From positions 213,573-277,572 of the forward strand of contig CBDFKP010000002.1 in assembly GCA_965248865.1 (NCBI GenBank): DNA of 64,000 bases. Direction: 5' to 3'. The notes beneath the pieces were generated by a model that saw only the letters and a list, made by a program, of their open reading frames with translations, made no database searches and had not been told where the DNA came from. The stretch is from Dehalococcoidia bacterium (GTDB lineage: Bacteria; Chloroflexota; Dehalococcoidia; Lucifugimonadales; JAPUKM01). Of this stretch, positions 518 to 52,900 are shown piece after piece. The stretch's first letter is position 1, and every line of letters starts with the position of its first letter. A program made the translations under genes and the position numbers.

Positions 518-705
518 ACAGGGTGCGTGTGTGCTGAACGGCATGCCTGTGCCTTATCCTCGAAGGCCAATGACATGGACAGAGTCGGTGGTCCGGGCTC
601 GCCCCGACTAGCGTCGGGGCATACCGTTGCGGGACAGCGCCGGCCTCTCACCGGCTTCCTCCGAGCGCCCAAGGGGACGCCTCTGTCCTTGCTATTCTGT
701 TGTAA
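493..705 (-). promoter_or_regulatory. Cobalamin (B12) riboswitch, aptamer plus terminator expression platform
   Basis: Minus strand reads GGAGGAAGCCGGUGAGAGGCCGGCGCUGUCCCGCAACGGUA, matching the conserved GGGAA..GGUG.AA..CC..CCCGC.AC.GUA core. A B12-box-like GAGCCCGGACCACCGAC lies at 584-600. Position is 5' of the BtuF-like gene. Confidence 0.75.
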
Positions 706-2010: not shown

Positions 2011-3204
2011 ATGCCACTGCCTCTGGAGGGTATCAAGGTTATCGACATGACCCAGATCGTCATGGGGCCCACCTGCACCAGGAACCTGGCCGACCAGAGG
2101 GCGGATGTGATCAAGGTGGAGCCGCCCCGGGGCGACGACTACCGGACCCGGTACACCACGCCGAGGCTCGCCAGCCATAACCAGAGCCGCCCCTTCCTGA
2201 CGCTGAACCGGAACAAGCGGAGCATCGTTGTTGACCTGGCGATGGAGTCTGGTCGGGGGGTGGTGCACCGGCTGTCGAAGTGGGCCGATGTAATGGTGGT
2301 CAACCTGCGGCCCAGGGCGGCAAGACGGCTCGGTGTGGACTACGCTACGTTGCGGGAGAGAAACCCTCGGCTGGTGTACGCCGTGGTCAACGGGTACGGT
2401 CAGAAGGGGCCGGACAGCGACCTGCCTGCCTACGATATGGTGCTGCAGGCCCGGTCAGGGATCGCCTCCACCACCAGGGGGCCGGACGGTGCTCCCATTC
2501 CCTCGGCGATACTCATCGCGGACACGTCCGGGGCGATGTTCCTGTGCTACGCCATCATGGTTGCGCTGTGGGAGCGTCAGAAAACGGGCCGGGGCCAGCA
2601 GGTGGAGCTTTCGCTGCTGAGCCAGGCACTGGCCATGCAGGACCTGGATATGGTCAAGATACAGGGCGAACCGGAGGAGCCGTCCGGGGGCGCACCCCGG
2701 GGGGCCACCTTCTACTACCGGTGTGCCGATGATCACTATCTGTCCGTGGTGATGGTGACGAGCCGTCAGTGGGCCGCTCTGTGCACGGTGCTGGAGCTGG
2801 AGCACCTGATCGAAGACGACAGGTTTGAGAGCTTTGATAAACGGAGGGCCGTGGCGCAGGAGGTGTTTGAGTTGCTGAGCGGCGTCTTTGGGACGCGGCC
2901 GCGGTCGGAGTGGCTACGGCTGCTGCGGGAGGCGGATGTACCGGCGGCACCGGTGGCTGAGCGGGCGGAGGTGTTCCATGACACGCAGGTGGTGGCCAAC
3001 GAGATGTTCGTCCGCCAGGCGCATCCGGATGTGGGTGACGTGACCATGGTGAACATACCGTTCACGCTATCAGCCAACGAGGGTGAGGCGCACATGCGAC
3101 GGCCGGCGCCGGGCCTGGGCCAGCACACCGACGAGGTGCTCGGTGAGCTGGGCTACACCGGAGGCGAGATTCAGGCGCTGCGGCAGGAGAAGGCGGTGGG
3201 GTAG
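2011..3204 (+). CDS. Family III (CaiB/BaiF-type) CoA-transferase, Asp-containing
   Basis: 397 aa. N-terminal LEGIKVIDMTQIVMGPTCTRNLADQRADVIKVEPP. Catalytic-Asp region ILIADTSGAMFLCYAIMVALWERQKTGRGQQVE. Confidence 0.85.
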   Translation: MPLPLEGIKVIDMTQIVMGPTCTRNLADQRADVIKVEPPRGDDYRTRYTTPRLASHNQSRPFLTLNRNKRSIVVDLAMESGRGVVHRLSKWADVMVVNLRPRAARRLGVDYATLRERNPRLVYAVVNGYGQKGPDSDLPAYDMVLQARSGIASTTRGPDGAPIPSAILIADTSGAMFLCYAIMVALWERQKTGRGQQVELSLLSQALAMQDLDMVKIQGEPEEPSGGAPRGATFYYRCADDHYLSVVMVTSRQWAALCTVLELEHLIEDDRFESFDKRRAVAQEVFELLSGVFGTRPRSEWLRLLREADVPAAPVAERAEVFHDTQVVANEMFVRQAHPDVGDVTMVNIPFTLSANEGEAHMRRPAPGLGQHTDEVLGELGYTGGEIQALRQEKAVG

Positions 3205-4590: not shown

Positions 4591-5586
4591 CTACTCTATG
4601 CCCAGCTCAGCTTTGACCTGGCGGACGGCGGCGATCATGTTGCGGAGCTTGGCTACCGACTCGTCCTCCAGGCGTGTCTTGAGGCCGCAGTCGGGCTTGA
4701 TGTAGAGGCGCTCCGGGGGGAGTACCTCCAAACCTCGCTTGATGCCCGCCACGATCTCCTCGACGGGCTCAACCTCATGGGTGTGAACGTCCAGCACGCC
4801 CATGGAGACGGCCATATCGTCGGGCAGGCCCTTCTGGCGGATGACGTCAAGGATGAAATAGTCGCTGTTGGCCATCTCCAGGTCCAGGTTGTTCACCGGC
4901 AGGTGTGCTATCTGACCAAAGACGGCTGCGAACTCGGCGTAGGTCTGGGAGTATTCGGCTGTGTGGGTAAAGGTGTAGGCGCTCAGACCCTGGGTGACGA
5001 TGCCCAGGGCACGGGAGGCCAATTCCACCTCCTCGGCCCGGGTGGAGATGGCGGGCTCGTCGATCTGGATGTACCTGGAGCCCGCCCGCTCCAAGTCCAC
5101 GGCCTCGTCGTGGATGGCGCTGGCCAGGTCCAGGATGAATGCTTCGCGGGAGGGGTAGTACTCGTTGAAGGACCAGTCGGCGATGGTGTAGGGGCCGGTA
5201 AGCATCCCCTTGACCGGTCTATCGGTGAGGCTCTGGGCGTACTTCCACCACTCGATGGTGATGGCGTCGGTGCGTCCCACGGGGCCGACGGCGATGGGCT
5301 TGCGGTAGTAGCGGTTGCCGTAGGAGCGCACCAGGCCGCTGATGGCGAACCCCTCCATGTGCTCAGAGAAGTAGGCGACCATATCGCCGCGGTTCATCTC
5401 GCCGTCCACCAGGATGTCCATGTCCATCTCTTCCTGGAGGCGGATCCAGTGCTCTGTAGCCTGGCGTCCCAGGCGGTCCAGCTCCTGGGCGTCGATCTCG
5501 CCCCGGGCGGCCCTGGTGCGGGCCTGGAGTAGATACTCAGGCTTGGGATAGCTGCCGACAGCGGTGGTCAGTAGGCCTTTGGTCAT
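4591..5586 (-). CDS. MetE-family (cobalamin-independent methionine synthase catalytic-domain-like) protein, core-MetE size
   Basis: 331 aa. N-terminal TTAVGSYPKPEYL, LEMANSD, C-terminal IKPDCGLKTR. The H-x-C zinc motif reads THTA (Cys replaced by Ala). Confidence 0.75.
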   Translation of the reverse strand: MTKGLLTTAVGSYPKPEYLLQARTRAARGEIDAQELDRLGRQATEHWIRLQEEMDMDILVDGEMNRGDMVAYFSEHMEGFAISGLVRSYGNRYYRKPIAVGPVGRTDAITIEWWKYAQSLTDRPVKGMLTGPYTIADWSFNEYYPSREAFILDLASAIHDEAVDLERAGSRYIQIDEPAISTRAEEVELASRALGIVTQGLSAYTFTHTAEYSQTYAEFAAVFGQIAHLPVNNLDLEMANSDYFILDVIRQKGLPDDMAVSMGVLDVHTHEVEPVEEIVAGIKRGLEVLPPERLYIKPDCGLKTRLEDESVAKLRNMIAAVRQVKAELGIE

Positions 5587-5741: not shown

Positions 5742-6716
5742 TCAGGCCAACGCTTCCTGGGCTGCCTTGGCCCCTTCCACCAGTCGTGCCAGCTTGTCCC
5801 GGGCGTTTGTGCGGGGGAGGAAGCCCAGTCCGCAGCTTGGGCTCAGGTGGATGCGTTCCAGGGGCACGCTGGCGGTTATACGGCGCACCGCCGCCACGAT
5901 CTCCTCCACCGGCTCCATGCGGGTGTTGCGCGCGTCCAAGAGGCCTACAGCCACCTCCTTGTCGCTGGGGAAACCGTCCAGCAGGTCATAGTTGGCAGGG
6001 CCCCAGGCGAAGTCCAGGCCGATGACCTGGAAGGGGAGTCGGTAGAAGTCCGGGGTTAGCCCCGATGCATCGCGAAAGTAGGTGGTCAGGGCCGTCTTGG
6101 CTCGGAGGCCCTGGGTGAGGACATGGGAGGCCTCCTTGAACAGCGAAAAGTCGTCCTTGTACTTCAGGATGGCCGGCTCATCGAACTGGATAACCGTGGC
6201 GCCGGCCTCCTCCAATGCTTTGGCCTCCCGGTTCAGTACGCCCGCCAGGTCCATAACCAGCGGGGCCAGGTCCGGGTAGCACCCCAACTGGGCCATTCGG
6301 CCCTGGGTGTACGGGCCGGTGATCACCGCTTTGACGGGCCGAGGGCTGTGGGCCTGGGCGAACCGGAAGTGATCTACGCTGATGGGGCCGTCCCAGGTCA
6401 GCGTGGACTCCGGGATGGGCTGACGGTAGTAGGTGTTGCTATCAAAGTAGCGGATGAGGCCGTTGATGGAGAAGCCCGGGATGCCCCGGGCGAAATAGGT
6501 CTGGCCATCGTCCCAACGGATATGGCCGTCGGTGACCAGGTCGATGCCCGCCTGAACCTGCTCGTCGATGGCCTCCTTGGTAACCTCGTCCTCTATGCGG
6601 CGGAGCTCCTCCTGGCTGATGCCTCCCTGGTCGAGTTGACGGATGGCGGCGCGCAGGCTGGGCGCCCTGGTACCGGGGCCGATTTTGGGGTAGTTGCCAA
6701 CGACCGTGGTGATCAA
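5742..6716 (-). CDS. MetE-family protein, paralog resembling the N-terminal (non-catalytic) MetE barrel
   Basis: 324 aa. MITTVVGNYPKIGPG, SPSCGLGFLPR. Lacks the HxC and Glu zinc ligands. Sits directly upstream of 4591..5586 on the same strand. Confidence 0.7.
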   Translation of the reverse strand: MITTVVGNYPKIGPGTRAPSLRAAIRQLDQGGISQEELRRIEDEVTKEAIDEQVQAGIDLVTDGHIRWDDGQTYFARGIPGFSINGLIRYFDSNTYYRQPIPESTLTWDGPISVDHFRFAQAHSPRPVKAVITGPYTQGRMAQLGCYPDLAPLVMDLAGVLNREAKALEEAGATVIQFDEPAILKYKDDFSLFKEASHVLTQGLRAKTALTTYFRDASGLTPDFYRLPFQVIGLDFAWGPANYDLLDGFPSDKEVAVGLLDARNTRMEPVEEIVAAVRRITASVPLERIHLSPSCGLGFLPRTNARDKLARLVEGAKAAQEALA

Positions 6717-9690: not shown

Positions 9691-10242
9691 TCAGACCTTT
9701 TCCCTCATCAACCATTCCTGGTCCCTGGCCGGGCCGGTTAGCCACTCGCTAACGGCCTGCGTCCTCCCTGGGGGCAGCGCCACGCCGAGGCCATCCGCCA
9801 GGCGGTTGAGGAAGCTGAACATGCAGGTGATGAGGTTCACCGAGAGTATCTGCTCGTCGCTGAGCCTCAGGTCCCGGAGCGCCTGGACATCGGTCTCCTG
9901 CATGGCCCACGGCTCGCGGGTGAGCTTGACGGCGTAGTCAAGCATGCCGCGGGTCTGGGGGTCCAGGTCTGCCGTGGTGTAGTCGTGCATCATGTGGCTG
10001 GCAAGCTCTGAGTCATCGGAATGCTGACGGAGGAACCCTCCGTGAGACATGACTCACCATTGACACCTGTTGACCATGGAGACCGTGACGGCTATGGACT
10101 CCTCCTGCACCCGAGTGAGCGTTGAGGCGCCGAAGGTGATGGCGCGGCTGGCGTTGCCGACGGCTTCCATGGCCGAGGGGATGATGGACATGACTCGTCT
10201 GATGGCGGGCGCTTGAATCTCTTCCTCCCGAATCCACGCCAT
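9691..10242 (-). CDS. AhpD/carboxymuconolactone-decarboxylase-family peroxidase-related protein, predicted selenoprotein (UGA at 10054-10056 read as Sec)
   Basis: Two track ORFs (10054..10242 and 9691..10050) share one frame and are separated only by TGA plus GTC. Read-through gives VSMVNRCQW-U-VMSHGGFL, i.e. C-x-x-U-x-x-x-H in place of the family C-x-x-C-x-x-x-H. Confidence 0.7.
10027..10043 (-). promoter_or_regulatory. SECIS-like hairpin downstream of the in-frame UGA
   Basis: mRNA ACGGAGG-GUU-CCUCCGU (7-bp stem, G/U apical loop) begins 10 nt after the UGA. Confidence 0.5.
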
Positions 10243-10360
10243 AGCGACCTCCTTACTTAGACTGGAAAAGTCTCTACGATTGCGAGCTGCGTAGCGAAGG
10301 ACCTAGACACCAGAGGGAGCAGTGCCGTGAGCGGGCGCATGGAGAAGCGGCGGGGTTCTT

Positions 10361-10819
10361 CTACGGTGTCTTTGCCAGATACTGCTCTATGCCCTCCTCC
10401 AGGGTGGTCCATGCCAGGAGGGCGCACTTGATGCGGATGGGGAACTTGCGGACTCCCTGGAGGGCCTCCAGGTCGCCGAGGGTCTCCAGGATGCTGTCCG
10501 CAACCTGCTCGCCGCTCATCAGACGCCGGAAGAGGTCGCTGAGCGCCTGCGCTTCGTCCAGGGACTTGCCCTTGATGAGCTCGGTCAGCATGGAGGCGGA
10601 GGCCTGGCTGATGGAGCATCCCTGGCCCTGGTGCCCAACCTCCTCTACAGAGCCATCGCCGTTGACCTTGATCTGGAGAGCTACCTTATCGCCGCAGAAG
10701 GGGTTGTACTCTTCGGCGTTGATCTGGGCGTCCGGAACGGAAGAGGTGTTTCTGGGGCTACGGTAGTGGTCTAGGATGAGCTCCCGGTAGAGCTCATCAA
10801 GGTCATCTTCTATTGGCAT
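10361..10819 (-). CDS. sufU: SUF-type Fe-S cluster scaffold/sulfur acceptor (NifU-like N-terminal domain)
   Basis: 152 aa. LYRELILDHYRSPRN, NPFCGD, GQGCSISQASASMLTE. Confidence 0.85.
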   Translation of the reverse strand: MPIEDDLDELYRELILDHYRSPRNTSSVPDAQINAEEYNPFCGDKVALQIKVNGDGSVEEVGHQGQGCSISQASASMLTELIKGKSLDEAQALSDLFRRLMSGEQVADSILETLGDLEALQGVRKFPIRIKCALLAWTTLEEGIEQYLAKTP

Positions 10820-12041
10820 TGCCGAAGTAGCCTATCGCCTTCTTGAGACCCAGAACCAGGGCATCCACATCTTCATCTGTATTATACACATAGAAGCTGG
10901 CCCGCGCCGATGCCGCTAGCCCCAGCTTCCGATGCATGGGCATGACGCAGTGGTGGCCGGCCCTGATCGCGATGCCCTCACTATCCAGGAGAGTCCCTAG
11001 ATCGTGGGGGTGGATGTCACCCAGGGCGAAGGCGATAAGACCGCCACGGCCTCCCGCATCCCTGGGGCCCACTATTTCAAGCTCCTCCAGCTCCTTGAAC
11101 GCCTCCAGGGCATAGGCGGTGGTCTCCACCTCATGCCGTCGCACGTTCTCCATGCCCAGGGCCTGCAGGTAGTCGATGGCCGCGCCCAGGGCGATGGTGT
11201 CGGCTATGTTGGGCGTGCCCGCCTCGAACCGGTTGGGGAGGTCGTTCCAGGTGGCGTGGTCGTACCAGACCTCCCGCACCATCTCACCGCCCCGGAGGAA
11301 CGGCTCCATGGACTCCAACACGGAGGGCCTAACGTAGAGGACGCCGATGCCGGTGGGGCCGAGCATCTTGTGCCCGGAGAAGGCCAGGAAGTCACAGTCC
11401 AGCTCCACGACGTTGGTGGGCAGGTGGGGCACGCTCTGAGCGCCGTCCAGCATGAACAGGGCCCCCACCTGCCGCGCCCGCTGACGAAGGGTCTCCACGG
11501 GGTTCAGGGTGCCCAGGAAGTTGGACATGTGGACCACGGAGACCAGGCGGGTGCGCTGGTTGATGAGGGTGTCCAGGGAGGCGATGTCAAGGGTTCCCTG
11601 GTCCGTTGTGGGGATGAAGCGGAGGTGGGCACCCGTGCGCTGGGCCACCATCTGCCAGGGGACCAGGTTGCTGTGGTGCTCCATCTCCGTCACCAGGATT
11701 TCATCCTCCGGGCCGATGTTTTCCAGTGCCCAGGAGTAGGCCACCAGGTTGATGGCCTCCGTGGTGTTCCGGGTGAAGATGACGCTCTCCACAGCGGGTG
11801 CGTGGATGAAGTCGGCCACTTTGCGGCGGGCCGCTTCATACTGGTCGGTGGCCTCTACGCTGAGTGCGTGAACGCCCCGGTGGACGTTGGAGTTGTACCG
11901 CTGGTAGTAGTCGGTAAGGGCCTGGATGACCTGGCGCGGCTTCTGGGAGGTGGCGGCGTTGTCCAGGTAGACGAGGGGTTTGCCGTAGACCTCCCGGGCC
12001 AGGATAGGGAAGTCGTTGCGAATCACTTTGGGGTCAAACAT
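10803..12041 (-). CDS. sufS: Cysteine desulfurase, SufS class
   Basis: 412 aa. FPIL..VYLDNAATSQKP, HRGVHALS, FSGHKMLGPTGIGVLY (PLP Lys), RAGHHC. Confidence 0.9.
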   Translation of the reverse strand: MFDPKVIRNDFPILAREVYGKPLVYLDNAATSQKPRQVIQALTDYYQRYNSNVHRGVHALSVEATDQYEAARRKVADFIHAPAVESVIFTRNTTEAINLVAYSWALENIGPEDEILVTEMEHHSNLVPWQMVAQRTGAHLRFIPTTDQGTLDIASLDTLINQRTRLVSVVHMSNFLGTLNPVETLRQRARQVGALFMLDGAQSVPHLPTNVVELDCDFLAFSGHKMLGPTGIGVLYVRPSVLESMEPFLRGGEMVREVWYDHATWNDLPNRFEAGTPNIADTIALGAAIDYLQALGMENVRRHEVETTAYALEAFKELEELEIVGPRDAGGRGGLIAFALGDIHPHDLGTLLDSEGIAIRAGHHCVMPMHRKLGLAASARASFYVYNTDEDVDALVLGLKKAIGYFGNANRR

Positions 12042-12061
12042 TGCTCACATGGTGCCAAGCG

Positions 12062-13417
12062 TTAGGTGATTTCGTCGCTTCCCAGCCACTGCCGCAGGGT
12101 GCTCTGGACCAGGCTGTCCACGTGGTCCCGATACGGTTTACACTGGATGCTGTCGATGACCTCACTTACGAAGGCGCGTACGAGGAATCTCCGGGCCGCC
12201 TCCTCGCTCAGGCCGCGGGTACGCAGGTAGAAGAGTGCATCTTCGTCTATTTGGCCGCAGGCGGCGCCGTGCCGGCAGATGACATCGTCGCAGTAGATCC
12301 AGAAGGCCGGTTTGGTATCGGCCTCGGCCTGGTCGGACAGCAGTAGGTTCTTGTCGGACTGGTCGGCATCCACCTTGGCGGCGCCCTCGCGCACGATGAT
12401 GCTGCCGTGGAACACGGAACGGGACTTGCCGTCCAGGATGCCCTTGTAGAGCTCTCGGGTGGTGGTATACCCCTTTGCGTGATCCACGACAACCTGGTTG
12501 TCCACGTGCTGGGAGCGGGTCACCAGGTAGAGGCCGTTGAGCATACAGCCAGCGCCCTGGGCTTCCATGAGTGCGCTGAGGTTGTTACGCACGAGTCCGC
12601 CACCCAGGTCCAGGTTTACCGATGAGAGGTGGCTGTCCTGAGAGAGCACCGCTTGTGTGTTGGTAATGTGGAACGCCTGCTCACTCTGGCGCTGGACCTT
12701 GTAGTATCTGAGGGCTGAGCCCTGTCCCAGGGAGAGCTCCGTGACGGCGTTGGTGAAGTACCTGGTGTCGGACAGGCAGCCGTAGCTTTCGATGACGGTG
12801 GCGCTGCTGTCTCTGCCGGTGATGATGAGCACCCTGGGATGCGTCACCGTGTCCTCTTCCCGGGCGGTGCTGACAAAGAGGAGATGGATGGGCTCCTCCA
12901 CCGTTGCGCCATCCGGGATGTGGACGAAGGCGCCATGGTGGACGAAGGCGGTGTTCAGCGCGACCATGACGTTGGCATCATAGGCGGCGTGGCGGGCCAG
13001 GTGCTGCTGCACCAGGTCTGCCGATGAGGCCATGGCCTCCGCCAGGTTCATCACACGAACGCCGTTGGGCAAAGAAGCGAGGGATGAGAGCTCAGGGGCG
13101 TAGGTCCCGTCGACGAAGACCAGCCGCGCCCACGCCGACTCGCCGAAGGTGAGCCGCTCCAGCTCCGCATCCGGCAGCTTTCCGGGCGCGGGCTTGGCGG
13201 GAAGACGGAATGGGATGCGGGCGATGGGGCGTATGTCTGTGTACTTCCACTCCTCGTTTCCGCGGCGGACCATGGGGAACCCCAGGTCGTTGAATGTGGA
13301 GATGGCCGTGTCTCGGAGGGTGTGCACCCACGAGGGGTCCCTGGCGTAGCCGTTCCTCTGAAGCGACTCGAACGCCTCAAGATAGGCCATCTCATGGGTA
13401 GGCGGGCGCTGGGTCAT
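12062..13417 (-). CDS. sufD: Fe-S cluster assembly protein SufD
   Basis: 451 aa. Beta-helix region with SVFHGSIIV..DADQSDKNLLLS typical of SufD. 4-nt overlap with sufC. Confidence 0.85.
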   Translation of the reverse strand: MTQRPPTHEMAYLEAFESLQRNGYARDPSWVHTLRDTAISTFNDLGFPMVRRGNEEWKYTDIRPIARIPFRLPAKPAPGKLPDAELERLTFGESAWARLVFVDGTYAPELSSLASLPNGVRVMNLAEAMASSADLVQQHLARHAAYDANVMVALNTAFVHHGAFVHIPDGATVEEPIHLLFVSTAREEDTVTHPRVLIITGRDSSATVIESYGCLSDTRYFTNAVTELSLGQGSALRYYKVQRQSEQAFHITNTQAVLSQDSHLSSVNLDLGGGLVRNNLSALMEAQGAGCMLNGLYLVTRSQHVDNQVVVDHAKGYTTTRELYKGILDGKSRSVFHGSIIVREGAAKVDADQSDKNLLLSDQAEADTKPAFWIYCDDVICRHGAACGQIDEDALFYLRTRGLSEEAARRFLVRAFVSEVIDSIQCKPYRDHVDSLVQSTLRQWLGSDEIT

Positions 13418-14199
13418 GGCGATGCACTTCCAGACTCGCTGGACTGGCCGGCTGCCACCATCGCTTCAAACTTATCGTAGCCCTCCGCCTCCACCTGCAG
13501 GGCCAGCTCTTTGCCACCGGTCTTCGCGATCCGGCCGTCGATGAACACGTGCACCACGTCCGGGACCACGTAGTTGAGGATACGCTGGTAGTGGGTGATA
13601 AGTATAGTTGCCGCGTTGGGCCGCCGTAGCTGATTGATGCCCTCCGCAACGACGCGGACGGCGTCTATGTCCAAGCCGGAGTCGGGCTCATCAAGGATGG
13701 CCAGCTTGGGTTCCATGACCGCCATCTGGAGGACTTCGTTGCGCTTCCTCTCACCGCCGGAGAAACCCTCATTGACGTAGCGCTGGACAAGGCTGCTATC
13801 CACGCCAATGAGTGCTACCTTACCTTTGAGGAGTCGATTGAACTTCAGAACGTCCAACTCCTCAGCGCCCTGACTCTTCCGCACGGAGTTGTAGCCAGCA
13901 CGCAGGAACTGGTCCAGCCGCACGCCCGGTAGCTCCACAGGGTGCTGAAAGGAGAGGAAGAGCCCTGCCCTGGCCCGAGCCTCCGGTAGCATGTCCAGAA
14001 GCTTCTTTCCCTCAAAGAGCACCTCTCCGGAGGTAACGGTGTAAGCCAGCTTGCCGGCCAGTACGTAGGCCAGGGTGCTCTTGCCTGAGCCGTTGGGGCC
14101 CATGATGGCGTGCAGCTCTCCGGCCTTGACCTGAAGGTTGACCCCTTTCAGGATCTCGGTATCGGCAACCGTGGCATGAAGCTCTCGTATCTCAAGCAT
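13414..14199 (-). CDS. sufC: Fe-S cluster assembly ATPase SufC
   Basis: 261 aa. Walker A GPNGSGKST, signature GFSGGERKR, Walker B ILDEPDSGLD. Confidence 0.95.
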   Translation of the reverse strand: MLEIRELHATVADTEILKGVNLQVKAGELHAIMGPNGSGKSTLAYVLAGKLAYTVTSGEVLFEGKKLLDMLPEARARAGLFLSFQHPVELPGVRLDQFLRAGYNSVRKSQGAEELDVLKFNRLLKGKVALIGVDSSLVQRYVNEGFSGGERKRNEVLQMAVMEPKLAILDEPDSGLDIDAVRVVAEGINQLRRPNAATILITHYQRILNYVVPDVVHVFIDGRIAKTGGKELALQVEAEGYDKFEAMVAAGQSSESGSASP

Positions 14200-14203
14200 C
14201 TAA

Positions 14204-14424
14204 GGTTGGGTCCGCCTTTTTTCATAAAACGGCAGATCATGCGTCATGGGAGTCGCTCATGGGCATCAGCCTACGGAGGTTGGGTCTGCCTTTTTTATAC
14301 ATCGGTAGGTTATGCGTCATGCGTGTCGCTCAGGGGCATCAGCCCACGGAGGTTGGGTCTACCTTTTTTATACATCGGTAGGTTATGCGTCATGCGAGTC
14401 GCTCAGGGGCATCAGCCCACGGAG
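14204..14424. repeat. Tandem triplication (73-74 nt unit, 3 copies) spanning the sufB 3' end and the sufB-sufC intergenic region
   Basis: Units start at 14204, 14278 and 14351 (GGTTGGGTC..CATCAGCC[C/T]ACGGA). Each carries the last codons and stop of sufB on the minus strand. Confidence 0.85.
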
Positions 14425-15890
14425 CCTTCGAGGTTTGCCTCAAGGAGCCTGGTGGCCTCTACGGCGAACTCGAAGGGCAACTGCTTGAACACCTCTTTGC
14501 AGAAGCCGTTGATGATGAGCGAGTGGGCGTCCTCCGTTGAGATGCCGCGCTGATTGCAGTAGAAGAGCTGCTCTTCACTTACCCGTGAGGTGAAGGCCTC
14601 ATGCTCCAGGTGGGAGCTGCTGTTGCGGACCTCCACGTACGGCGTTGTGTGGGCGCCGCACTGGTCTCCCAGGAGCAGAGAGTCGCACTGGGTGAAGTTC
14701 CAGGAGTTTGAGGCCCTGGGCATGATCTGGATAAGGCCCCGATAGGTGCCCTGGCCGTGTCCTGCGGAGATGGTCTTGGCGATAACGGTGCTGCGGGTGT
14801 TCTTTCCCAGGTGGATCATCTTGGTGCCGGTATCCGCCTGCTGGTAGCCCCTGGTGAGGGCCACGGAGTAGAACTCTCCGACGGAGTTGTCCCCCTGGAG
14901 GATGACGCCGGGGTATTTCCAGGTGATGGCCGCGCCGGTCTCCACCTGAGTCCAGGAGATCTTGGAGTTGTTGCCGATGCACTTGCCGCGCTTAGTGACG
15001 AAGTTATAGATGCCGCCCTTGCCGTTCTCATCGCCTGGGTACCAGTTTTGTATGGTGGAGTACTTGATCTCGGCGTTGTCCAGGGTGATAAGCTCCACCA
15101 CGGCGGCGTGAAGCTGGTTCTCGTCACGCATGGGGGCGCTGCACCCCTCCAGGTAGCTGACGTAGCTACCCTCCTCCGCGATGATCAGGGTGCGCTCAAA
15201 CTGTCCCGACTGAGCGGTGTTGATCCTGAAGTAGGTGGTCAGCTCCAAGGGGCAGCGTACCCCCTTGGGGATGAAGCAGAAAGAGCCGTCGGAGAAGACG
15301 GCGGAGTTGAGCGCCGCGTAGAAGTTATCGGAGTAGGGGACCACGGAGCCGAGGTACTTCCGTACCAGGTCAGGGTGGTTCCGGACCGCCTCAGAGAAGG
15401 AGCCGAAGATGATGCCGTGCTTGGCCAGCTCCTCTCGGAAGGTGGTCACCACCGAGACGCTGTCGAAGATGGCGTCCACGGCCACGCCGGCCAGCTGCTT
15501 TTGCTCCTCTAGGGGGATGCCCAGCTTTTCATAGGTCTTTAGCAGTTCCGGGTCTACCTCGTCCAGGCTGGCAAGCTGCTTCTTGGGCTTGGGCGCCGAG
15601 TAGTAGATGATGTCTTGGAAATCTATGGTCGGGTAGTGGACGTTGGCCCAATCAGGTAGCTGCTCCTTCTCCAGCAGGGAGATGAAGTGGCGGTAGGCCT
15701 TCAGGCGCCATTCCAACAGCCAATCCGGCTCCCCCTTCTTGGAGGAGATCCAGCGTATGGTGTCCTCGTTCAGGCCGGGCGGGGCGGTATCGGCTTCGAT
15801 ATCGGTGACGAAGCCGTACTTATAGTCTTGCTTGGCTGCCGCCTTGATCTCTTTGTTTCCGGTCCGGCGTAGCTCCGAGAGGTCTGGCAC
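14412..15890 (-). CDS. sufB: Fe-S cluster assembly protein SufB
   Basis: 492 aa. [14 protein letters not shown]-terminus, [13 protein letters not shown], canonical SufB C-terminus [17 protein letters not shown]. Confidence 0.95.
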
Positions 15891-23012: not shown

Positions 23013-24344
23013 CTAGCCAGGTGCCAGCCGAAGGCGGCTGATCCGTTCTAGTATCCCGGTCAGCATTTTCCTGGTTACCAGCACCTCGGCAAGCTGAAAC
23101 ACCAGCCTCCTTGCGTGGCGTACCAGTCGCCCACCCGTCTTGATCAGCCTGGTCTGAAGACTGGTCAGAGTCCAGTACTTCATATCCTCCGGCAACACCA
23201 GCCTTCTCATAAAGTTGCCCAGGTTGTAAGTCAGGACGAACAGCCATAGTCTCACCTGGTTGGCCACGAACTTGTGGCAGGAAAGCCGGATCCAGTTCAG
23301 GGCGTACTTGCCCTCCTTGATCCACTGCTCCGCCGTGCCACGGCCATTGTAAAAGCGGACTATTCCTTTGGGTGGATAGCTCAGGTTGGTCACGATGAAA
23401 CCAACCCTGGGAAATAGCTCCCCCTGATGCCACTCTACTTTAGCCACCACTCGCCTGGGCAAGTGCCAACTCTGGGCCTGATAGGCAAAGTCATGGTAGG
23501 AGACGATAGGCTCCCGGGATGGCCATTCGGTAGGACGCTCCAGCAAGGGTTGGATCTGCTCCTGAATTACCTGATTGGCGGGAAGCCGGATGGCGTACCC
23601 GATCTTTCCTTGTTCCAGATACTCGTATAGCTCCGGCTTGGCAAAAGCAGCGTCACCCCGGAACAGCAACCGCAGTCCTTTCTTCTGGTATCCTTTCACC
23701 ACCGGCTCAAGGAGTTCCTGCCAGCCATCGGCACTATGCACGTTTCCGGGTCGTAGCGTCGCTCCTTCGCAATCCCCAAACTGGTTGAACAGAAAGAGGG
23801 GATGATAGCAGACACACTCGAAGTGCCCGTTGTAGGCGGCTCCTTCCTGCTGACCATGCACTGGACTCTCCGAACTGTCCATGTCCAGAATCACTCGCCG
23901 GTGTGGAGTGTGAGCCATGGCCAGCTCCACCCACTGGGGATTCATCAGGGCCAGCCCCTTTAGGTTGTCCTCTTGAGTCAGAGTCTCCGTCTCAAAACGG
24001 CTCATGGTGTTGGTTCTGGCGGCGTTGCGGTCTGAGCCTTGCCAGCCCACGACAACTCTCATGGCTGGGTCTTGGGAAAGACGTTCTGCATCGTTGGTAT
24101 CATCGTAGCCGGCCAAGCGGCTGTAGATGGACTGGCGGAGCAGAGGGACCAGGTGGTGGCGGATGTTGCGGCCGGTACGGCTTTCCTGGAGATAGTCGGA
24201 GGCTATGGGGGTAAGGTCCAGGGCGTCATCCAGTTCTCGGAATGCCAGCAGTCCGGCGTCGGAGGTGATGGTGGCACCATGTAACTCCAGCCGGATTTGG
24301 GGATTGAATTGGAGCCGAAGAGAGGCCTTTTCGCGGTCACCCAT
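23013..24344 (-). CDS. IS1380-family DDE transposase
   Basis: 443 aa. LQFNPQIRLELHGATITSDAGLLAFRELDDALDLT is the characteristic N-terminus. Flanks are markedly AT-richer. Element ends not resolved. Confidence 0.9.
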   Translation of the reverse strand: MGDREKASLRLQFNPQIRLELHGATITSDAGLLAFRELDDALDLTPIASDYLQESRTGRNIRHHLVPLLRQSIYSRLAGYDDTNDAERLSQDPAMRVVVGWQGSDRNAARTNTMSRFETETLTQEDNLKGLALMNPQWVELAMAHTPHRRVILDMDSSESPVHGQQEGAAYNGHFECVCYHPLFLFNQFGDCEGATLRPGNVHSADGWQELLEPVVKGYQKKGLRLLFRGDAAFAKPELYEYLEQGKIGYAIRLPANQVIQEQIQPLLERPTEWPSREPIVSYHDFAYQAQSWHLPRRVVAKVEWHQGELFPRVGFIVTNLSYPPKGIVRFYNGRGTAEQWIKEGKYALNWIRLSCHKFVANQVRLWLFVLTYNLGNFMRRLVLPEDMKYWTLTSLQTRLIKTGGRLVRHARRLVFQLAEVLVTRKMLTGILERISRLRLAPG

Positions 24345-24519: not shown

Positions 24520-25041
24520 ATGACGGTGGGCATAGTAGCCCTGGTGGTGGTGGGCATCGTTTCGCTGGTGTTCGGCCAGGTGAAGCAGTCGTTCAGTAAT
24601 GACTTCGAGTTTGCGGTGTATCAGGGCGGGGATATGCTGGGAGGGACGGATTCTAGCTTCTCCCAGGTGTTTGGCCAGGGGAAGCCAGTGGTGTTGAACT
24701 TCTGGGCGGGGCTCTGCCCGCCCTGCCGGGCTGAAATGCCAGGGTTTCAGGCGGTATACGATCAGTACGAGGATGATTTCATCATGCTTGGGTTGGACGT
24801 GGGCCCGTTCATGAACCTTGGTAGCAATAGGGATGCCCGGGACCTGCTTCAGGAGCTGGGCATAACCTACCCGACGGCCCGTGCGCTCAACCGCGGCCCG
24901 GTAGTACAGTACGGTGTCCTGTCCATGCCGACCACGGTGTTCTTCACCCCCGACCGGCGGGTGTTCAGGACGGAGGTAGGGCTGTTAGACCAGCAGCGCC
25001 TCTCTGTCATAGTCCAGCAGCTCATCAGCGCCTCGGCGTGA
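24520..25041 (+). CDS. TlpA/ResA-like membrane-anchored thiol-disulfide oxidoreductase
   Basis: N-terminal TM helix, thioredoxin motif FWAGLCPPCRAEMP. Confidence 0.8.
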   Translation: MTVGIVALVVVGIVSLVFGQVKQSFSNDFEFAVYQGGDMLGGTDSSFSQVFGQGKPVVLNFWAGLCPPCRAEMPGFQAVYDQYEDDFIMLGLDVGPFMNLGSNRDARDLLQELGITYPTARALNRGPVVQYGVLSMPTTVFFTPDRRVFRTEVGLLDQQRLSVIVQQLISASA

Positions 25042-35447: not shown

Positions 35448-36500
35448 GTGGCGCTAGTTATAGACAACCATATCCATCTCATCTCCGGGAGAGGCGATAA
35501 GCACTATCTGCCAACCAACTATCGGTGGACGCTGTGCATGAACTGGGCCTACCGCGGCGGTCCTCCCTACGAGCGTGACCCGATGGACCTCTACCCTCGC
35601 CAGGAGGAGCGGGTGGCCGACCCGGATGGCTCCGCCACCGTCGCCGCCATGGAGAGGGCGGGGGTTGACGCGGGCGTCCTTATTCACGCCGATTTCGGCC
35701 CAGGCCATGGCGAGACTCAGGAGCTCTCCATGGAGGAGATGCACAAGGACTACGCCGATCTCCAGAAAAAGTACCCCGGTAAGCTGTATGCCTTCGCGGG
35801 ACCGGACGTCCGGCGCCCCGGCTCCCTGGAGCTGGTGGAGAAGGCCTTTCGTGACTGGGACACCAAGGGGCTGAAGGTGTTTCCAGAGGTGGGCTACTTT
35901 GTCAACGACCCGATGCTCTACCCCTTCTACCAGAAGTGCTTGGAGTACGAGCGGCCGATAGCCATCTGCACCAACTTCGAGCCACCCTTCTCTCGCGGGC
36001 GGTTCAACGACCCCATCTACATCACGGATGTGGTGGCGGACTTCCCCGACCTGAACGTGATCATCTTTCACTGCGGCAACCCCTTTGAGCACTGGTTCGA
36101 TATCTCCCTGGCCATTGGGGGAGCGGCGCTGAACACCTACCTGGAGTTCGATGCGTGGATCCATCCGGGCCGGAGGTCGGAGGAGGAGATGGTGCGGAGG
36201 CTGGCCAAGACGCGTGACAGGGTAGGGGCCCACCGCATCACCTTCGGGACGGACTTCCAGTGCTCGCCGAGCAACTGGGGAGACCGCCGGGCTGATGATT
36301 ACGTTCGGCACGTAGATTTCTGGAAGGAGCTGCCGAAGACGGCGCTGAAGTATGGTGTGAACTTCAGCCAGGAGGAGGTGGACCTGATGATGGGGCTGAA
36401 CCTGGGCCGGCTGCTGGGTGTGGTGGATATGCCGGAGTACACCAAGAAGCGCAAGTATGGCTGGAGCATCCTGATGCCGCGGCCCATGCCGACGCCGTAG
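35448..36500 (+). CDS. Amidohydrolase-2 (PF04909-type TIM-barrel metal hydrolase/decarboxylase) paralog 1 of 6
   Basis: GTG start. IDNHIHL (HxH), IIFHCG, FGTDFQ metal-site motifs. Conserved tail VDMPEYTKKRKYGWSILMPRPMPTP. Confidence 0.85.
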   Translation: MALVIDNHIHLISGRGDKHYLPTNYRWTLCMNWAYRGGPPYERDPMDLYPRQEERVADPDGSATVAAMERAGVDAGVLIHADFGPGHGETQELSMEEMHKDYADLQKKYPGKLYAFAGPDVRRPGSLELVEKAFRDWDTKGLKVFPEVGYFVNDPMLYPFYQKCLEYERPIAICTNFEPPFSRGRFNDPIYITDVVADFPDLNVIIFHCGNPFEHWFDISLAIGGAALNTYLEFDAWIHPGRRSEEEMVRRLAKTRDRVGAHRITFGTDFQCSPSNWGDRRADDYVRHVDFWKELPKTALKYGVNFSQEEVDLMMGLNLGRLLGVVDMPEYTKKRKYGWSILMPRPMPTP

Positions 36501-36571
36501 TCTGTGAAGAGCAGGCGGCATCCGTTGGAAACTCGTATGGTCCTTGTATGGTCATAGAGGGAGGAACTGAT

Positions 36572-37642
36572 ATGGCGACGGTTATAGACAACCATGTCCA
36601 CCTCATATCCGGAACGCCCGGCAATGAGTATATGTCGCCCAACTACCGTTGGTACCACTGCTACAACTGGGCCTACGGTGGTGCACACAGGCCTCCCTAC
36701 GAGCGCGACCCCATGGATATGTACCCCCGCCAGGAGCAGCGGGTGGCGGACCCGGACGGCTCGGCCACGGTGAAGGCGATGGATGCCGCCGGTGTGGACG
36801 CCTGCGTGCTGATCCACGCCGACTTCGGTCACGGCTTTGGGGAGCTGGGGGCCAAGAGCATGGAGGAGATGCACCAGGACTACACGGACATCGCCAACCG
36901 GTACCCGGGCCGCTTCTATCCCTTCGCGGGGCCGGATGTCCGTCGTCCGGGGTCGCTGGAGATGGTCCGCAAGGGGCTGGCGGACGGTCGATTCAAGGGG
37001 CAGAAGGTGTTTCCGGAGGTGGGGTACTTCGCCAACGACCCGATGCTGTACCCCTTCTATAGCGCCCTGCTGGAGGCGGAAGCGCCGGTGGCTATCTGCA
37101 CCAACTTCGAGTCGCCCATGGCTCGCGGTCGGTACAATGACCCCATCTATATTACGGATGTGGTGGCGGACTTCCCTGACCTGAACGTCATCATCTTCCA
37201 CTGCGGCTACCCGTACCAGCACTGGTTTGAGATCTGCCTGGCCATTGCTCGGGCGGCCCTCAACGTGCACGTGACCGTGGAGCCGTGGCTGTGGGGATAC
37301 AGCGAGGCCGGTCCGGGGCGCGAGGAGGAGGGCATTCGGAAGCTGGCGAGGATCAGAGACTCCATCGGTGCCCACCGCATCCACTTCGGTACCGATGGCC
37401 AGTTCGCCAACACCAACTGGGGCGAGGGGTGTACGCAGACCTACATCAACCATGTCAACATTTGGAGAGAGCTGCCGGAACGGGCCAAGCGGTACGGGAT
37501 CACCTTCAGCCAGGAGGAGGTGGACCTGATGATGGGGCTGAACCTGGGCCGGCTGCTGGGTGTGGTGGATATGCCGGAGTACACCAAGAAGCGCAAGTAC
37601 GGCTGGAGTATCCTGATGCCGCGGCCCATGCCAACGCCGTAG
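36572..37642 (+). CDS. Amidohydrolase-2 paralog 2 of 6
   Basis: Start MATVIDNHVHL after GAGGGAGG. IIFHCG, FGTDGQ. Same tail. Confidence 0.85.
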   Translation: MATVIDNHVHLISGTPGNEYMSPNYRWYHCYNWAYGGAHRPPYERDPMDMYPRQEQRVADPDGSATVKAMDAAGVDACVLIHADFGHGFGELGAKSMEEMHQDYTDIANRYPGRFYPFAGPDVRRPGSLEMVRKGLADGRFKGQKVFPEVGYFANDPMLYPFYSALLEAEAPVAICTNFESPMARGRYNDPIYITDVVADFPDLNVIIFHCGYPYQHWFEICLAIARAALNVHVTVEPWLWGYSEAGPGREEEGIRKLARIRDSIGAHRIHFGTDGQFANTNWGEGCTQTYINHVNIWRELPERAKRYGITFSQEEVDLMMGLNLGRLLGVVDMPEYTKKRKYGWSILMPRPMPTP

Positions 37643-37704
37643 TCTGTGAAGAGGCGGCGTCCGTTGGAAATTCGTACGGTTTCAGATAGAGGGAGGGAAC
37701 TGAT

Positions 37705-38775
37705 ATGGCGATGGTCATAGACAACCATGTCCACCTTATATCCGGTACACCCGGCAATGAGTACCTGCCGCCCAAGTACCGATGGTGGACCTGCTACAAC
37801 TGGGCTTATGCCCACCCTCATATGCCCCCGTATGACAGAGACCCTATGGATATATACGAACGCCAGGAGCAGCGGGTGGCGGACCCGGATGGGTCGGCAA
37901 CGGTGAAGGCGATGGACGCCGCCGGTGTGGATGCCTGCGTGCTGATCCACGCCGACTTCGGCCTTTGCTACGGCGAGATAGGGCCAAAGAGCATGGAGGA
38001 GATGCACCAGGACTACACGGACATCGCCAAGCGGTACCCGGGCCGCTTCTATCCCTTCGCCGGGCCGGATGTCCGTCGTCCGGGGTCGCTGGAAATGGTG
38101 CGCAAGGGTCTACAGGACGATTCCTTCAAAGGGCAGAAGATATTTCCTGAGGTGGGCTACTTTGTCAACGATCCGATGCTGTACCCCTTCTACAGCGCCA
38201 ATTTGGAGGCCGAGAGGCCCGTTGCCATCTGCACCAACTTCGAGCCGCCCATGGCCCGGCCCAGGATGAACGATCCCATCTATATCACGGATGTAGTGGC
38301 TGACTTCCCTGACCTGAACGTTATTATTTTCCACGCCGGCTATCCCCTTGACCACTGGTTTGAGATTACCCTGGCCATCGCCAGAGCCGCCCTCAACGTC
38401 TACATAACGGTGGAGCCGTGGCTGTGGGGGTACCCGGGATGGGAAAAGGGTGGGGAAGAGGACGGCATCAGGAGACTGGCGAGGATCAGGGACTCCATTG
38501 GTGCCCACCGCATCAGCTTCGGGACCGATGGTCAGTTCGCGAACACCAACTGGGGCGAGAGGAGCATCGAGAACTACAAGGAGCATGTCAATATCTGGAA
38601 AGAGCTGCCGGAGCGAGCGAAGAGGTACGGGATCTCCTTCAGCCAGGAGGAGGTGGACCTGATGATGGGGATGAACCTGGGCCGGCTGGTTGGTGCCGTG
38701 GATATGCCGGAGTACAAGAAGAAGCGCAAGTACGGGTGGAGCATCTTGATGCCGAGGCCCATGCCGACGCCGTAA
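37705..38775 (+). CDS. Amidohydrolase-2 paralog 3 of 6
   Basis: MAMVIDNHVHL, IIFHAG, FGTDGQ. Tail VDMPEYKKKRKYGWSILMPRPMPTP. Confidence 0.85.
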   Translation: MAMVIDNHVHLISGTPGNEYLPPKYRWWTCYNWAYAHPHMPPYDRDPMDIYERQEQRVADPDGSATVKAMDAAGVDACVLIHADFGLCYGEIGPKSMEEMHQDYTDIAKRYPGRFYPFAGPDVRRPGSLEMVRKGLQDDSFKGQKIFPEVGYFVNDPMLYPFYSANLEAERPVAICTNFEPPMARPRMNDPIYITDVVADFPDLNVIIFHAGYPLDHWFEITLAIARAALNVYITVEPWLWGYPGWEKGGEEDGIRRLARIRDSIGAHRISFGTDGQFANTNWGERSIENYKEHVNIWKELPERAKRYGISFSQEEVDLMMGMNLGRLVGAVDMPEYKKKRKYGWSILMPRPMPTP

Positions 38776-38817
38776 GAGGCACCGAGGTTGGTGCGAGCAC
38801 AGAAGGAGGGAGCTGGA

Positions 38818-39876
38818 ATGGCACAGATCATAGATAACCACGTTCACCTGCTTTCCGGGAGACCGGGCAAAGAGTACGAGCCGCCCATCTACAGGTGGCG
38901 ACAGTCCTACAGTTGGGCCTACGGTGGTGCACACAAGCCTCCCTACGAGCGTGACCCCATGGACCTGTACCCGCGGCAGGAAGAGCGGGTGTCCGACCCG
39001 GACGGCACGGCCACCATCGCCGCCATGGACAAGGCGGGCGTGGACTCCGCGGTGCTGATCCATGCCGATTTCGGCCCCAGCCACGGCGGTGGCGAGGGTA
39101 TGACCATGGAGGAGATGGCAAAGAGCTACGCGGACCTCCAGAAGAAGTACCCGGGTCGGTTTTACGCCTTTGCCGGGCCGGACGTTCGGCGCCCCGGCTC
39201 CCTGCAACTAGTGGAGAAGGCCTTTACCGAATGGGATACTAAGGGGCTGAAGGTGTTTCCAGAGTTGGGCTATTTTGTCAACGACCCGATGCTCTACCCC
39301 TTCTACAGCCTGTGCTTAGAGGCTGAGAAGCCCATTGCCATCTGCACCAACTTCGAGTCTCCCTTTGCGCGAGGACGGTACAACGACCCCCTCTATATCA
39401 CGGACGTGGTGGCGGACTTCCCCGACCTGGACGTGATCATCTTCCACTGCGGCAACCCGTTTGAGCACTGGTTTGAGATCACCCTGGCCATTGGGGGCGC
39501 GGCGTTGAACACCTACCTGGAGTTCGATGCGTGGATCCATCCAGGCCGGAGGTCGGAGGAGGAGATGGTGCGGCGGCTGGCCAAGACGCGTGACAGGGTA
39601 GGGGCCCACCGCATCACCTTCGGGACGGACTTCCAGTGCTCGCCGAGCAACTGGGGAGACCGCCGGGCTGATGATTACGTTCGGCACGTAGATTTCTGGA
39701 AGGAGCTGCCGAAGACGGCGCTGAAGTATGGTGTGAACTTCAGCCAGGAGGAGGTGGACCTGATGATGGGGCTGAACCTGGGCCGGCTGCTGGGTGTGGT
39801 GGATATGCCGGAGTACACCAAGAAGCGTAAGTATGGCTGGAGCATCCTGATGCCGCGGCCCATGCCCACGCCGTGA
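38818..39876 (+). CDS. Amidohydrolase-2 paralog 4 of 6
   Basis: Start MAQIIDNHVHL after GGAGGGAG. The 3' half is near-identical to paralog 1. Confidence 0.85.
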   Translation: MAQIIDNHVHLLSGRPGKEYEPPIYRWRQSYSWAYGGAHKPPYERDPMDLYPRQEERVSDPDGTATIAAMDKAGVDSAVLIHADFGPSHGGGEGMTMEEMAKSYADLQKKYPGRFYAFAGPDVRRPGSLQLVEKAFTEWDTKGLKVFPELGYFVNDPMLYPFYSLCLEAEKPIAICTNFESPFARGRYNDPLYITDVVADFPDLDVIIFHCGNPFEHWFEITLAIGGAALNTYLEFDAWIHPGRRSEEEMVRRLAKTRDRVGAHRITFGTDFQCSPSNWGDRRADDYVRHVDFWKELPKTALKYGVNFSQEEVDLMMGLNLGRLLGVVDMPEYTKKRKYGWSILMPRPMPTP

Positions 39877-40041
39877 GCCACGGCCAAGAGGAGAGCGGTA
39901 GGAAGGTTGTGGTGTTTCCCGCTGGGCAGACCCCTGCCTACACCTCAAAGCCGCTTGTGGTACTATAGCGGGCGGCTGCCGGAGCACTGGCGGATGCGCC
40001 CAATGCTCGACGCCAATGCGTAGATTGTGGAAGGAGTGACT

Positions 40042-41187
40042 ATGGCTAATAAGAAAGCTCTTGTTATCGGTGGGACAGGCCCCACGGGCCCGTTCGTTGT
40101 GGAGGGGCTGGTGGAGCGTGGTTACGATGTGACCATTCTGCACCGAGGTTTCCATGAGGTGGAGTTCAAGTACCCGGTGGAGCATATCCACGGGGAGCCG
40201 CACTTCGCCGAGGAGTTCCGGGAGGCCTTGGGGGATAATAGCTACGATGTCATCGTTGCCATGTACGGGCGACTGCGGGTTGTGGCCGATGCGTGCGTCG
40301 GTAAGACGGAGCGGTTCATTGCGGTGGGCGCCGGCGCTCCCCAGGACCAGCTACTCTCCATCTATGATTTGGGGATGAGAAGGTCGGGCGAGTCACTGGA
40401 GGGCACCGGCTCCATCCAGAAGCGCGTCAGCCAGGCCCGGGAGGAGGTTATGGAGTACCACCGGTCGGGCAAGTACGTCATGACCTACATCGGGTACCCC
40501 AGCGTGTATGGGCCGCGGCAGCCGGGTCCCCTGGAGTGGAGCATTCTTCGCAGGGTCCTGGACGGACGCAGGAAGTTTATGGTCCTGGATGGCGGCCTTC
40601 ACATGCGGCACTTCCCCTATGTGGAGAACTGCGCCCAGCCCGTGCTCCTGTCGGTGGACAGGCCCAAGGAGTCCGGGGGGAATTTCTACGGCGCCGCGGA
40701 GGAGGCGATGATCACGGACCGGTTCCGGCTTCAGACCATCGCCGATATCATGGAGGTGGAGATTGAGATGTACAGCTTCCCCCATGATATGGGGGTGCCG
40801 GGATGGTGGTGGGGCAACGGCGATTTCACCTTTGCGCAGGAGGGTCGGGCTCCCCGCATGGCGCACAACAACGTAGGCGTGGAGAAGCTCAAGCGGGAAC
40901 TGGGCTATAAAGACGTGGTGGACCCCGTTGAGGCCCATAGACGTAGCGTGGAGTGGCTGCTGGCCAACAAGCCGGTGCCCGGCGGTGAAGATGAGCAGAT
41001 CCTGGGTGACCCGTTCGATTACGCGGCTGAAGACGCCTATTTCGAAGCCCACGATAAGTTTGCTGAGGCGCTGGACAGGATTCCCTTTGGCGGGTACTCC
41101 ACCGTACACCGCTACCAGCATCCCAAGGAGCCGTGGCAGAAGGGTGTCACCGCACATGTCGATCGGAGCAAGACAGCGAGAGGTTAA
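40042..41187 (+). CDS. NAD(P)-dependent epimerase/dehydratase-type (extended SDR) protein embedded in the amidohydrolase array
   Basis: MANKKALVIGGTGPTGPFVVEGL (Rossmann GxxGxxG). About 380 aa. Confidence 0.75.
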   Translation: MANKKALVIGGTGPTGPFVVEGLVERGYDVTILHRGFHEVEFKYPVEHIHGEPHFAEEFREALGDNSYDVIVAMYGRLRVVADACVGKTERFIAVGAGAPQDQLLSIYDLGMRRSGESLEGTGSIQKRVSQAREEVMEYHRSGKYVMTYIGYPSVYGPRQPGPLEWSILRRVLDGRRKFMVLDGGLHMRHFPYVENCAQPVLLSVDRPKESGGNFYGAAEEAMITDRFRLQTIADIMEVEIEMYSFPHDMGVPGWWWGNGDFTFAQEGRAPRMAHNNVGVEKLKRELGYKDVVDPVEAHRRSVEWLLANKPVPGGEDEQILGDPFDYAAEDAYFEAHDKFAEALDRIPFGGYSTVHRYQHPKEPWQKGVTAHVDRSKTARG

Positions 41188-52897: not shown

Positions 52898-52900
52898 GGC

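Follow-up and report, generated by a model that had tools for sequence, protein, structure and literature searches.

The stretch analysed here (the window) comprises 64,000 nucleotides from a Dehalococcoidia bacterium (contig CBDFKP010000002.1, positions 213,573 to 277,572). On its minus strand, positions 10242..9691 hold two adjacent open reading frames (ORFs) separated by a TGA. We interpreted them as very probably one gene, encoding a 183-residue AhpD-like selenoprotein in which the UGA specifies selenocysteine (Sec). The features of this locus are listed below.

9691..10242, minus strand: complete coding sequence of the predicted AhpD-like selenoprotein; 183 codons plus the terminal TGA (9693-9691), in one frame, with TIGR01926 matched across the junction
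10248..10254, minus strand: Shine-Dalgarno sequence AAGGAGG, read from the sequence, 5 nt ahead of the ATG at 10242-10240
10099..10101, minus strand: codon 48, Glu, counterpart of the proton-relay Glu118 of Mycobacterium tuberculosis AhpD; 12 residues ahead of the first Cys, invariant in the alignments, and matched by Glu in the PDB homologues and the database representatives
10063..10065, minus strand: codon 60, Cys (TGT), first residue of the CxxU motif (U being Sec), equivalent to AhpD Cys130; invariant in 81/81 orthologues, and the first Cys of CxxC in the homologues in the PDB
10054..10056, minus strand: codon 63, UGA, predicted Sec, equivalent to AhpD Cys133; TGA in the same column in 80/80 other species
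10042..10044, minus strand: codon 67, His (CAC), the proton-relay His at Sec +4, whose last two bases start the hairpin; CAC in 81/81, His in all homologues
10027..10043, minus strand: hairpin resembling a selenocysteine insertion sequence (SECIS); 5' arm ACGGAGG (10043-10037), loop GUU (10036-10034), 3' arm CCUCCGU (10033-10027)

The upstream ORF, of 62 codons (10242..10057), was closed by the TGA at 10056-10054. A single Val codon followed (GTC, 10053-10051), and the ATG at 10050 then began a 119-codon ORF that ended at the TGA stop at 9693-9691. The ORFs 10242..10054 and 10050..9691 shared a single frame with only the TGA and the Val codon between them, and the sequence agreed in this with the layout given in an earlier note on this DNA. 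Reading through the TGA gave the peptide ...TRVQEESIAVTVSMVNRCQW*VMSHGGFLRQH..., which reproduced exactly the product proposed there, TRVQEESIAVTVSMVNRCQW-[UGA]-VMSHGGFLRQH. In a tblastn search the joined protein returned one 183-residue match. TGA served as the ordinary stop of 19 of the 56 long ORFs in the window, and therefore the code has not been reassigned.

The joined product was scored against family profiles with Cys put at the UGA position. It is a member of TIGR01926 ('peroxidase-related enzyme'), scoring 110.2 bits (cutoff 81.8) over residues 6-154, which span the junction. It also matched the AhpD core domain TIGR00778 (33.6 bits, cutoff 27.8) and the carboxymuconolactone decarboxylase superfamily PF02627 (31.8 bits, gathering score 23), the two models to which it had been suggested to align, again across the junction. 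On the other hand, the N-terminal half by itself reached 17.1 bits on PF02627, which is under threshold, and the C-terminal half by itself matched no family model. This bore out the claim that neither half alone makes a domain.

Five solved structures, 3c1l (Mlr4105), 2pfx, 6k40, 2oyo and 2prr, matched the joined product with E values from 3e-21 to 1e-18; 6k40 was deposited under 'alkyl hydroperoxide reductase AhpD'. All five aligned without gaps over approximately 120 residues, through the motif N-x-C-x-[YW]-C-x-x-[AS]-H-G. Their second Cys stands in the UGA column, and all of them conserve the Glu before the motif and the His after it. With solved homologues at an E value of about 1e-21, the fold is established. 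The active site of the window protein was read as Glu48 ... Cys60-Gln-Trp-Sec63-Val-Met-Ser-His67, with spacings of 12, 3 and 4.

When 1.84 billion cluster representatives were searched with a profile, 4197 relatives were obtained, of which the best 150 were listed; 121 of these span the active site. At columns 60/63, CxxC was present in 55 of the 121 (29-46% identity to the window protein), CxxG in 20 (36-54% identity) and NxxC in 15, which were long two-domain proteins. The remaining representatives had scattered other motifs. Cys-containing homologues had been expected to place Cys, and not a gap, opposite the UGA, and this was found in the five structures and in the 55 CxxC representatives.

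The UGA is conserved. Scanning a single genome for each GTDB species gave 505 loci encoding a relative, and the best 80 of the 505 were fetched. All 80 came from Dehalococcoidia, SAR202 or Chloroflexota metagenome-assembled genomes (MAGs), and all 80 had TGA at the identical column, far beyond chance expectation. With the window included, each of the 81 genes contained one internal stop, which was always TGA and never TAA or TAG; their genuine 3' stops were TAG in 40, TGA in 28 and TAA in 13. An orthologue with a true stop or two separate genes at this place, which would have told against the proposed recoding, was not seen among the 80.

In 29 of the 81 genes there was no ATG, GTG or TTG within five codons past the TGA (for example, CRY-UGA-ASSHGG), and therefore the downstream part is not independently startable in those genes. 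A Shine-Dalgarno-like motif preceded the conserved M-x-W-I start in 78 of the 81. Mean pairwise amino acid identity was 0.655 upstream of the TGA and 0.674 downstream, and divergence at codon positions 1/2/3 was 0.27/0.20/0.53 upstream and 0.26/0.19/0.51 downstream. This indicated that both halves are translated in this frame and are under equal purifying selection. The gene is continuous across the TGA.

In a public protein collection, the best 120 matches were nearly all 'C-terminal halves' of 115-130 residues from Chloroflexota MAGs. The collection included a 100-aa product identical to the window locus and more than 100 C-terminal-half products of 119 aa for relatives, so that the mis-annotation by gene callers anticipated in the earlier note was found both at the locus and in its relatives.

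Two further observations concern gene copies. The 208-aa product P0033 joined the C-terminal fragment of one AhpD-like copy in frame to the N-terminal fragment of a second copy, ending ...CRF just before its stop. This suggested tandem selenoprotein paralogues in some genomes. The MAG CAXXFI010000001.1 contained two separate TGA-bearing copies (L032 and L051).

The hairpin ACGGAGG-GUU-CCUCCGU is 17 nt long and lies 10 nt past the UGA, its first base being the 11th nt. The 31 nt around it folded at -12.9 kcal/mol against a shuffle mean of -5.4 (z = -3.5), and 0 of 200 shuffles folded as well. A long lower stem that would pair the UGA region with downstream sequence was seen in the fold of the 61-nt context. 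That context alone was not significant (z = -1.2), and the 7-bp core was retained instead.

For comparison among relatives, 84 sequences were aligned without gaps, and pairs were counted over the 83 distinct ones. The spacing from UGA to hairpin was fixed, and the seven pairs were kept in 77 to 83 of the 83 sequences, as follows (alignment columns).

Pair 20-36: AU in 77/83
Pair 21-35: CG in 83
Pair 22-34: GC in 83
Pair 23-33: GC in 78, GU in 5
Pair 24-32: AU in 53, GU in 30
Pair 25-31: GC in 83
Pair 26-30 (closing pair; 10037/10033 in the window): GC in 54, AU in 21, CG in 5, unpaired in 3

The closing pair joins a second codon position (GGG, GAG or GCG, for Gly, Glu or Ala) to a third position two codons on, where changes are synonymous or nearly so. 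GGG was accompanied by TTC in 54/54 sequences, GAG by TTT in 21/23, and GCG by TTG or GCG. The first loop base was G in every UGA-containing sequence. Paired cells, both-side changes and the covariation score each exceeded all 500 shuffles, a control that is inflated by shared ancestry.

Among the 81 orthologues, synonymous variation was collapsed in the hairpin codons only. The codon for His67 was CAC in 81/81, against 6-22 CAT at the other conserved His codons. Gly68 was encoded by GGA or GGG only, against mostly GGC at other conserved Gly codons; Leu71 by CTC in 76/81, against mostly CTG elsewhere; and Arg72 by CGT in 75/81, whereas most other Arg codons use T least often in the third position. 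Selection acts on the hairpin at the RNA level. The 17-nt hairpin described in the earlier note was thus found at 10043-10027, as a conserved element whose closing pair covaries and whose synonymous sites are frozen. Its extension by two pairs past a C.C mismatch forms in the window but is not conserved, the two pairs being present in 24/83 and 19/83 relatives.

The capacity of the lineage to decode Sec is documented in BSepDB, which covers only species with at least two Sec-pathway genes (PMC13326102). Its ten most selenoprotein-rich bacteria include Dehalococcoidia bacterium UBA1141 (49 genes) and Dehalococcoidia bacterium 10f4566d-... (46 genes) (PMC13326102). TGA orthologues were present in both of these MAGs, one in UBA1141 (L034) and two in 10f4566d-... 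(L032 and L051). A canonical SECIS is missing from about 13% of the bacterial selenoprotein genes catalogued (PMC13326102). Within this Sec-decoding lineage, the locus is an unremarkable representative of an already known selenoprotein family.

Several points weigh against reading the UGA as Sec. The genes selA, selB and selD and tRNA-Sec were not found within the 64-kb window, so that Sec-decoding capacity is shown for relatives only. No further selenoprotein candidate was found in the window, where two screens for in-frame TGA gave antisense or out-of-frame artefacts only. The hairpin is short (7 bp and a 3-nt loop) and without an Rfam match, and it encodes the conserved peptide H-G-G-F-L-R, so its conservation is partly driven by the protein. 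In the closest full-length non-Sec relatives, the Sec column is occupied by Gly, Trp, Thr or Leu instead of Cys, so that Sec or Cys at residue 63 is not indispensable in every lineage.

Related searches gave the following. ARAGORN detected no tRNA-Sec in any of the fetched relative loci. Rfam gave no SECIS or tRNA-Sec match in the whole window at gathering thresholds or at the locus at E<=10, a result that is uninformative for a 17-nt hairpin. A thioredoxin-like ORF at 24520-25041 (plus strand) was considered as a second selenoprotein and rejected; it is membrane-anchored, thioredoxin/AhpC-TSA-like, and has an ordinary CPPC motif.

The pattern of Gly, Trp, Thr and Leu at residue 63 is a small curiosity and leaves the Sec reading unweakened. 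The non-Sec codons at this column were TGG (Trp), ACC (Thr), TTA (Leu) and GGG (Gly). The hairpin sequence was retained in three single-residue variants, L001 (codon at 767-769), L002 (381-383) and L003 (339-341). The Gly form, which had lost the loop G, made up a clade of some 20 representative clusters, and several of these had long C-terminal extensions. One example, L087 (63-1391), encodes 442 aa and ends in an acidic tail of low complexity. The idea that Gly at the Sec column and the extra length reflect TGA read under genetic code 25 proved wrong, as the codon in L087 is truly GGG and its ORF of 442 codons is genuine.

CxxC forms appeared only at approximately 37% identity or below. It is conceivable, though unlikely, that the SAR202/Dehalococcoidia clade is a distinct subfamily in which Sec is not exchangeable for Cys, because the UGA was kept in 80/80 species and the nearest full-length non-Sec relatives never have Cys. 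If so, the protein would use selenium-specific chemistry, and its non-Sec relatives would be one-Cys proteins of different function.

Three other explanations of the TGA were weighed. That it is a true stop, leaving either a broken gene or two small genes with a restart at the ATG at 10050, is how gene callers treat it, with a 100-aa product for the locus and more than 100 C-terminal products of 119 aa in relatives. The window does have an ATG 3 nt past the TGA, closely preceded by a weak GGTGA. Yet an internal stop in the same column in 81/81 genes, always TGA, is unlike real stops, and 29 of the 81 have no start codon within five codons past it. Neither half is a domain, the stop falls inside the catalytic CxxC motif, and purifying selection is equal on both halves, with no frameshifts; a decaying pseudogene would not be expected intact across 80 species. 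We consider a true stop exceedingly unlikely. An assembly or sequencing error for TGC or TGT (Cys) has next to no probability: the change is of one base and the source is apparently a MAG, but the same TGA recurred in 80 assemblies made independently, across different species and studies, and including finished long-read chromosomes.

Read-through by a near-cognate tRNA, inserting Trp or Cys, is also very unlikely. In this case the hairpin would merely slow the ribosome or have some other role. One metagenomic variant has TGG (Trp) with the hairpin kept, which fits this explanation, as does the failure to find the Sec machinery within the 64-kb window. Against it, the UGA coincides exactly with a catalytic Cys position in a redox CxxC motif, and the hairpin has the spacing, size and loop G that are usual for a bacterial SECIS (PMC1088965). 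The same family with the same motif has been catalogued among selenoproteins (PMC13188914), relatives carry the gene in Sec-pathway genomes with 46-49 selenoproteins (PMC13326102), and other ORFs in the window end normally at TGA. From the sequence comparisons, the in-frame UGA almost certainly codes for selenocysteine.

With the UGA read as Sec, translation would begin at the AUG at 10242, behind a strong Shine-Dalgarno sequence, and the ribosome would reach the UGA at codon 63. The 17-nt hairpin, from the 11th nt past the UGA, would serve as the bacterial SECIS and recruit SelB.GTP.Sec-tRNA(Sec). We infer this SelB-hairpin interaction and the insertion of Sec at codon 63 from the sequence; translation would then go on to the real stop at 9693-9691.

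Sec in redox enzymes is usually at the attacking position. The proton relay of M. tuberculosis AhpD consists of Glu118, Cys130, Cys133 and His137 (PMC3141380). In that protein the residue at the bottom of the active-site cleft is Cys133, which makes the disulfide with AhpC, and Cys130 is partly buried (PMC6626918). Because Cys133 is the exposed, attacking residue and Cys130 the buried one (PMC6626918), homology places Sec63 at the nucleophile position and not at that of the resolving Cys. The UGA had earlier been assigned to the second, resolving Cys. The second position stood; the resolving role did not, Cys133 being the attacking residue (PMC6626918).

By this homology, Sec63 would stand in place of the exposed attacking Cys133 and be activated by the Glu/His relay. 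It would then attack an oxidised partner (for example, the disulfide or sulfenate of a peroxiredoxin) or, possibly, a hydroperoxide itself. The intermediate would be resolved by the buried Cys60, giving a selenenylsulfide that is reduced again by an upstream reductant. The homologues thus suggest a peroxide or disulfide-reductase activity, with corresponding partners.

The AhpD-like gene lies directly downstream of a sufBCDSU cluster on the same strand (15890..10361), as the earlier note had stated.

14412-15890, minus strand: sufB, upstream of the AhpD-like gene
13414-14199, minus strand: sufC, upstream of the AhpD-like gene
12062-13417, minus strand: sufD, upstream of the AhpD-like gene
10803-12041, minus strand: sufS, upstream of the AhpD-like gene
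10361-10819, minus strand: sufU, directly upstream of the AhpD-like gene

The gap between sufU and the AhpD-like gene is 118 nt. No promoter-like or terminator-like site was found in it, and therefore co-transcription is plausible in the window; in this genome the gene may be co-transcribed with sufS-sufU. SufS-type enzymes can act as selenocysteine lyases. A functional link to suf as a general feature was rejected, as the sufS-sufU neighbourhood occurred in 1 of the 83 related loci (L074) and the other relatives were in unrelated contexts. Because of this, the suf linkage is incidental or very local.

Other features of the window were noted. A complete cobalamin riboswitch (RF00174, 45.9 bits) lies at 566-700 (minus strand). 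Adjacent half-size MetE-like genes at 4591-5586 and 5742-6716 (both minus strand) both match the catalytic domain of cobalamin-independent methionine synthase. An intact DDE transposase (DDE_Tnp_1_4, 435 bits) at 23013-24344 (minus strand) indicates an insertion sequence in the window. Four consecutive ORFs at 36299-40203 (minus strand; 384, 188, 365 and 295 aa) have a third-position GC of 0.58-0.70, against approximately 0.8 elsewhere, and no Pfam match. They may be a foreign island. A 523-aa ORF at 57249-58820 (minus strand) contains signal peptidase II (LspA), S4 and pseudouridine synthase domains, and is either a gene fusion or the result of a missed stop/start between two genes.

Five family III CoA-transferase paralogues lie within 43517-51423 (plus strand) and a sixth at 2011-3204 (plus strand). 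They are accompanied by several amidohydrolases and a luciferase-like monooxygenase, and the group as a whole also takes in 40928-43447 (plus strand) and 51899-55160 (minus strand). Such a content of CoA-transferases, amidohydrolases and luciferase-like monooxygenases, with paralogue expansion, is typical of SAR202.

The main value of these results is a correction of annotation. The gene is split or truncated by standard callers here and in hundreds of Dehalococcoidia/SAR202 genomes. As a consequence, counts fall short both for a redox/antioxidant enzyme and for the dependence on selenium of a lineage abundant in the deep ocean.

The closest known system is the AhpD-like selenoprotein family (COG2128/YciW, TIGR01926), which had been recognised in the earlier note as already reported and has been an established marine family since 2005 (PMC1088965, PMC2398784, PMC13188914). 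The 2005 Sargasso Sea study described 27 sequences of an 'AhpD-like protein' (COG2128) with the motif CXXU, and its selenoprotein genes had downstream stem-loops with a guanosine in the small apical loop (PMC1088965). In an analysis of the Global Ocean Sampling (GOS) data, 299 'AhpD-like 1' selenoproteins (COG2128, CxxU) made up the fourth most abundant family (PMC2398784), and a 2026 review included 'AhpD-like protein, TIGR01926, CxxU' in its selenoprotein list (PMC13188914). The window protein shares with this family the hidden Markov model (HMM) family, the CxxU motif, Sec in place of the second Cys, the SECIS-like hairpin with loop G just downstream, and a source among marine-type uncultured bacteria. 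There was no difference in kind; the window copy comes from a SAR202-type Dehalococcoidia and follows sufBCDSU. The results add nothing new on recoding or on the AhpD family.

Another Sargasso Sea protein, 'hypothetical protein 1' (NF041238, AhpD_rel_CFYUT), likewise has a carboxymuconolactone decarboxylase-type domain with C-x-x-U (PMC13188914). It is a two-domain protein of approximately 357 residues, whereas the window protein has 183 aa, scored 50.8 bits against a cutoff of 175, and is not a member. M. tuberculosis AhpD (TIGR00777) has Glu118, Cys130, Cys133 and His137 spaced as Glu48, Cys60, Sec63 and His67 of the window protein. Again the window protein is not a member (15.1 bits, cutoff 191.95), and no ahpC is adjacent to its gene.

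Deinococcus radiodurans DR1765 and the structures 3c1l, 2pfx, 2oyo and 2prr share the subfamily fold of the window protein, including Glu...CxxC...His. These DR1765-type proteins have Cys where the window protein has Sec, at approximately 35-40% identity. The AhpD-like protein DR1765 is presumably the one solved as PDB 6k40. Its protection against H2O2 is reported to depend on the CxxC motif (Zhao et al. 2020, cited through PMC8945050). By analogy, this supports an antioxidant role for the AhpD-like product.

As to the RNA element, the SECIS of Escherichia coli fdhF is also a stem-loop directly 3' of the UGA, inside the coding sequence and with a G in the apical loop. In contrast to that 40-nt element, the putative SECIS in the window is much shorter, is without the bulged U, and has a 3-nt loop. 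The minimal E. coli SECIS, an upper stem-loop of 17 nt placed 11 nt away from the UGA, has the same geometry as the window hairpin. The locus and its relatives provide a clean, well-sampled case of a compact coding-region SECIS under joint protein and RNA constraint.

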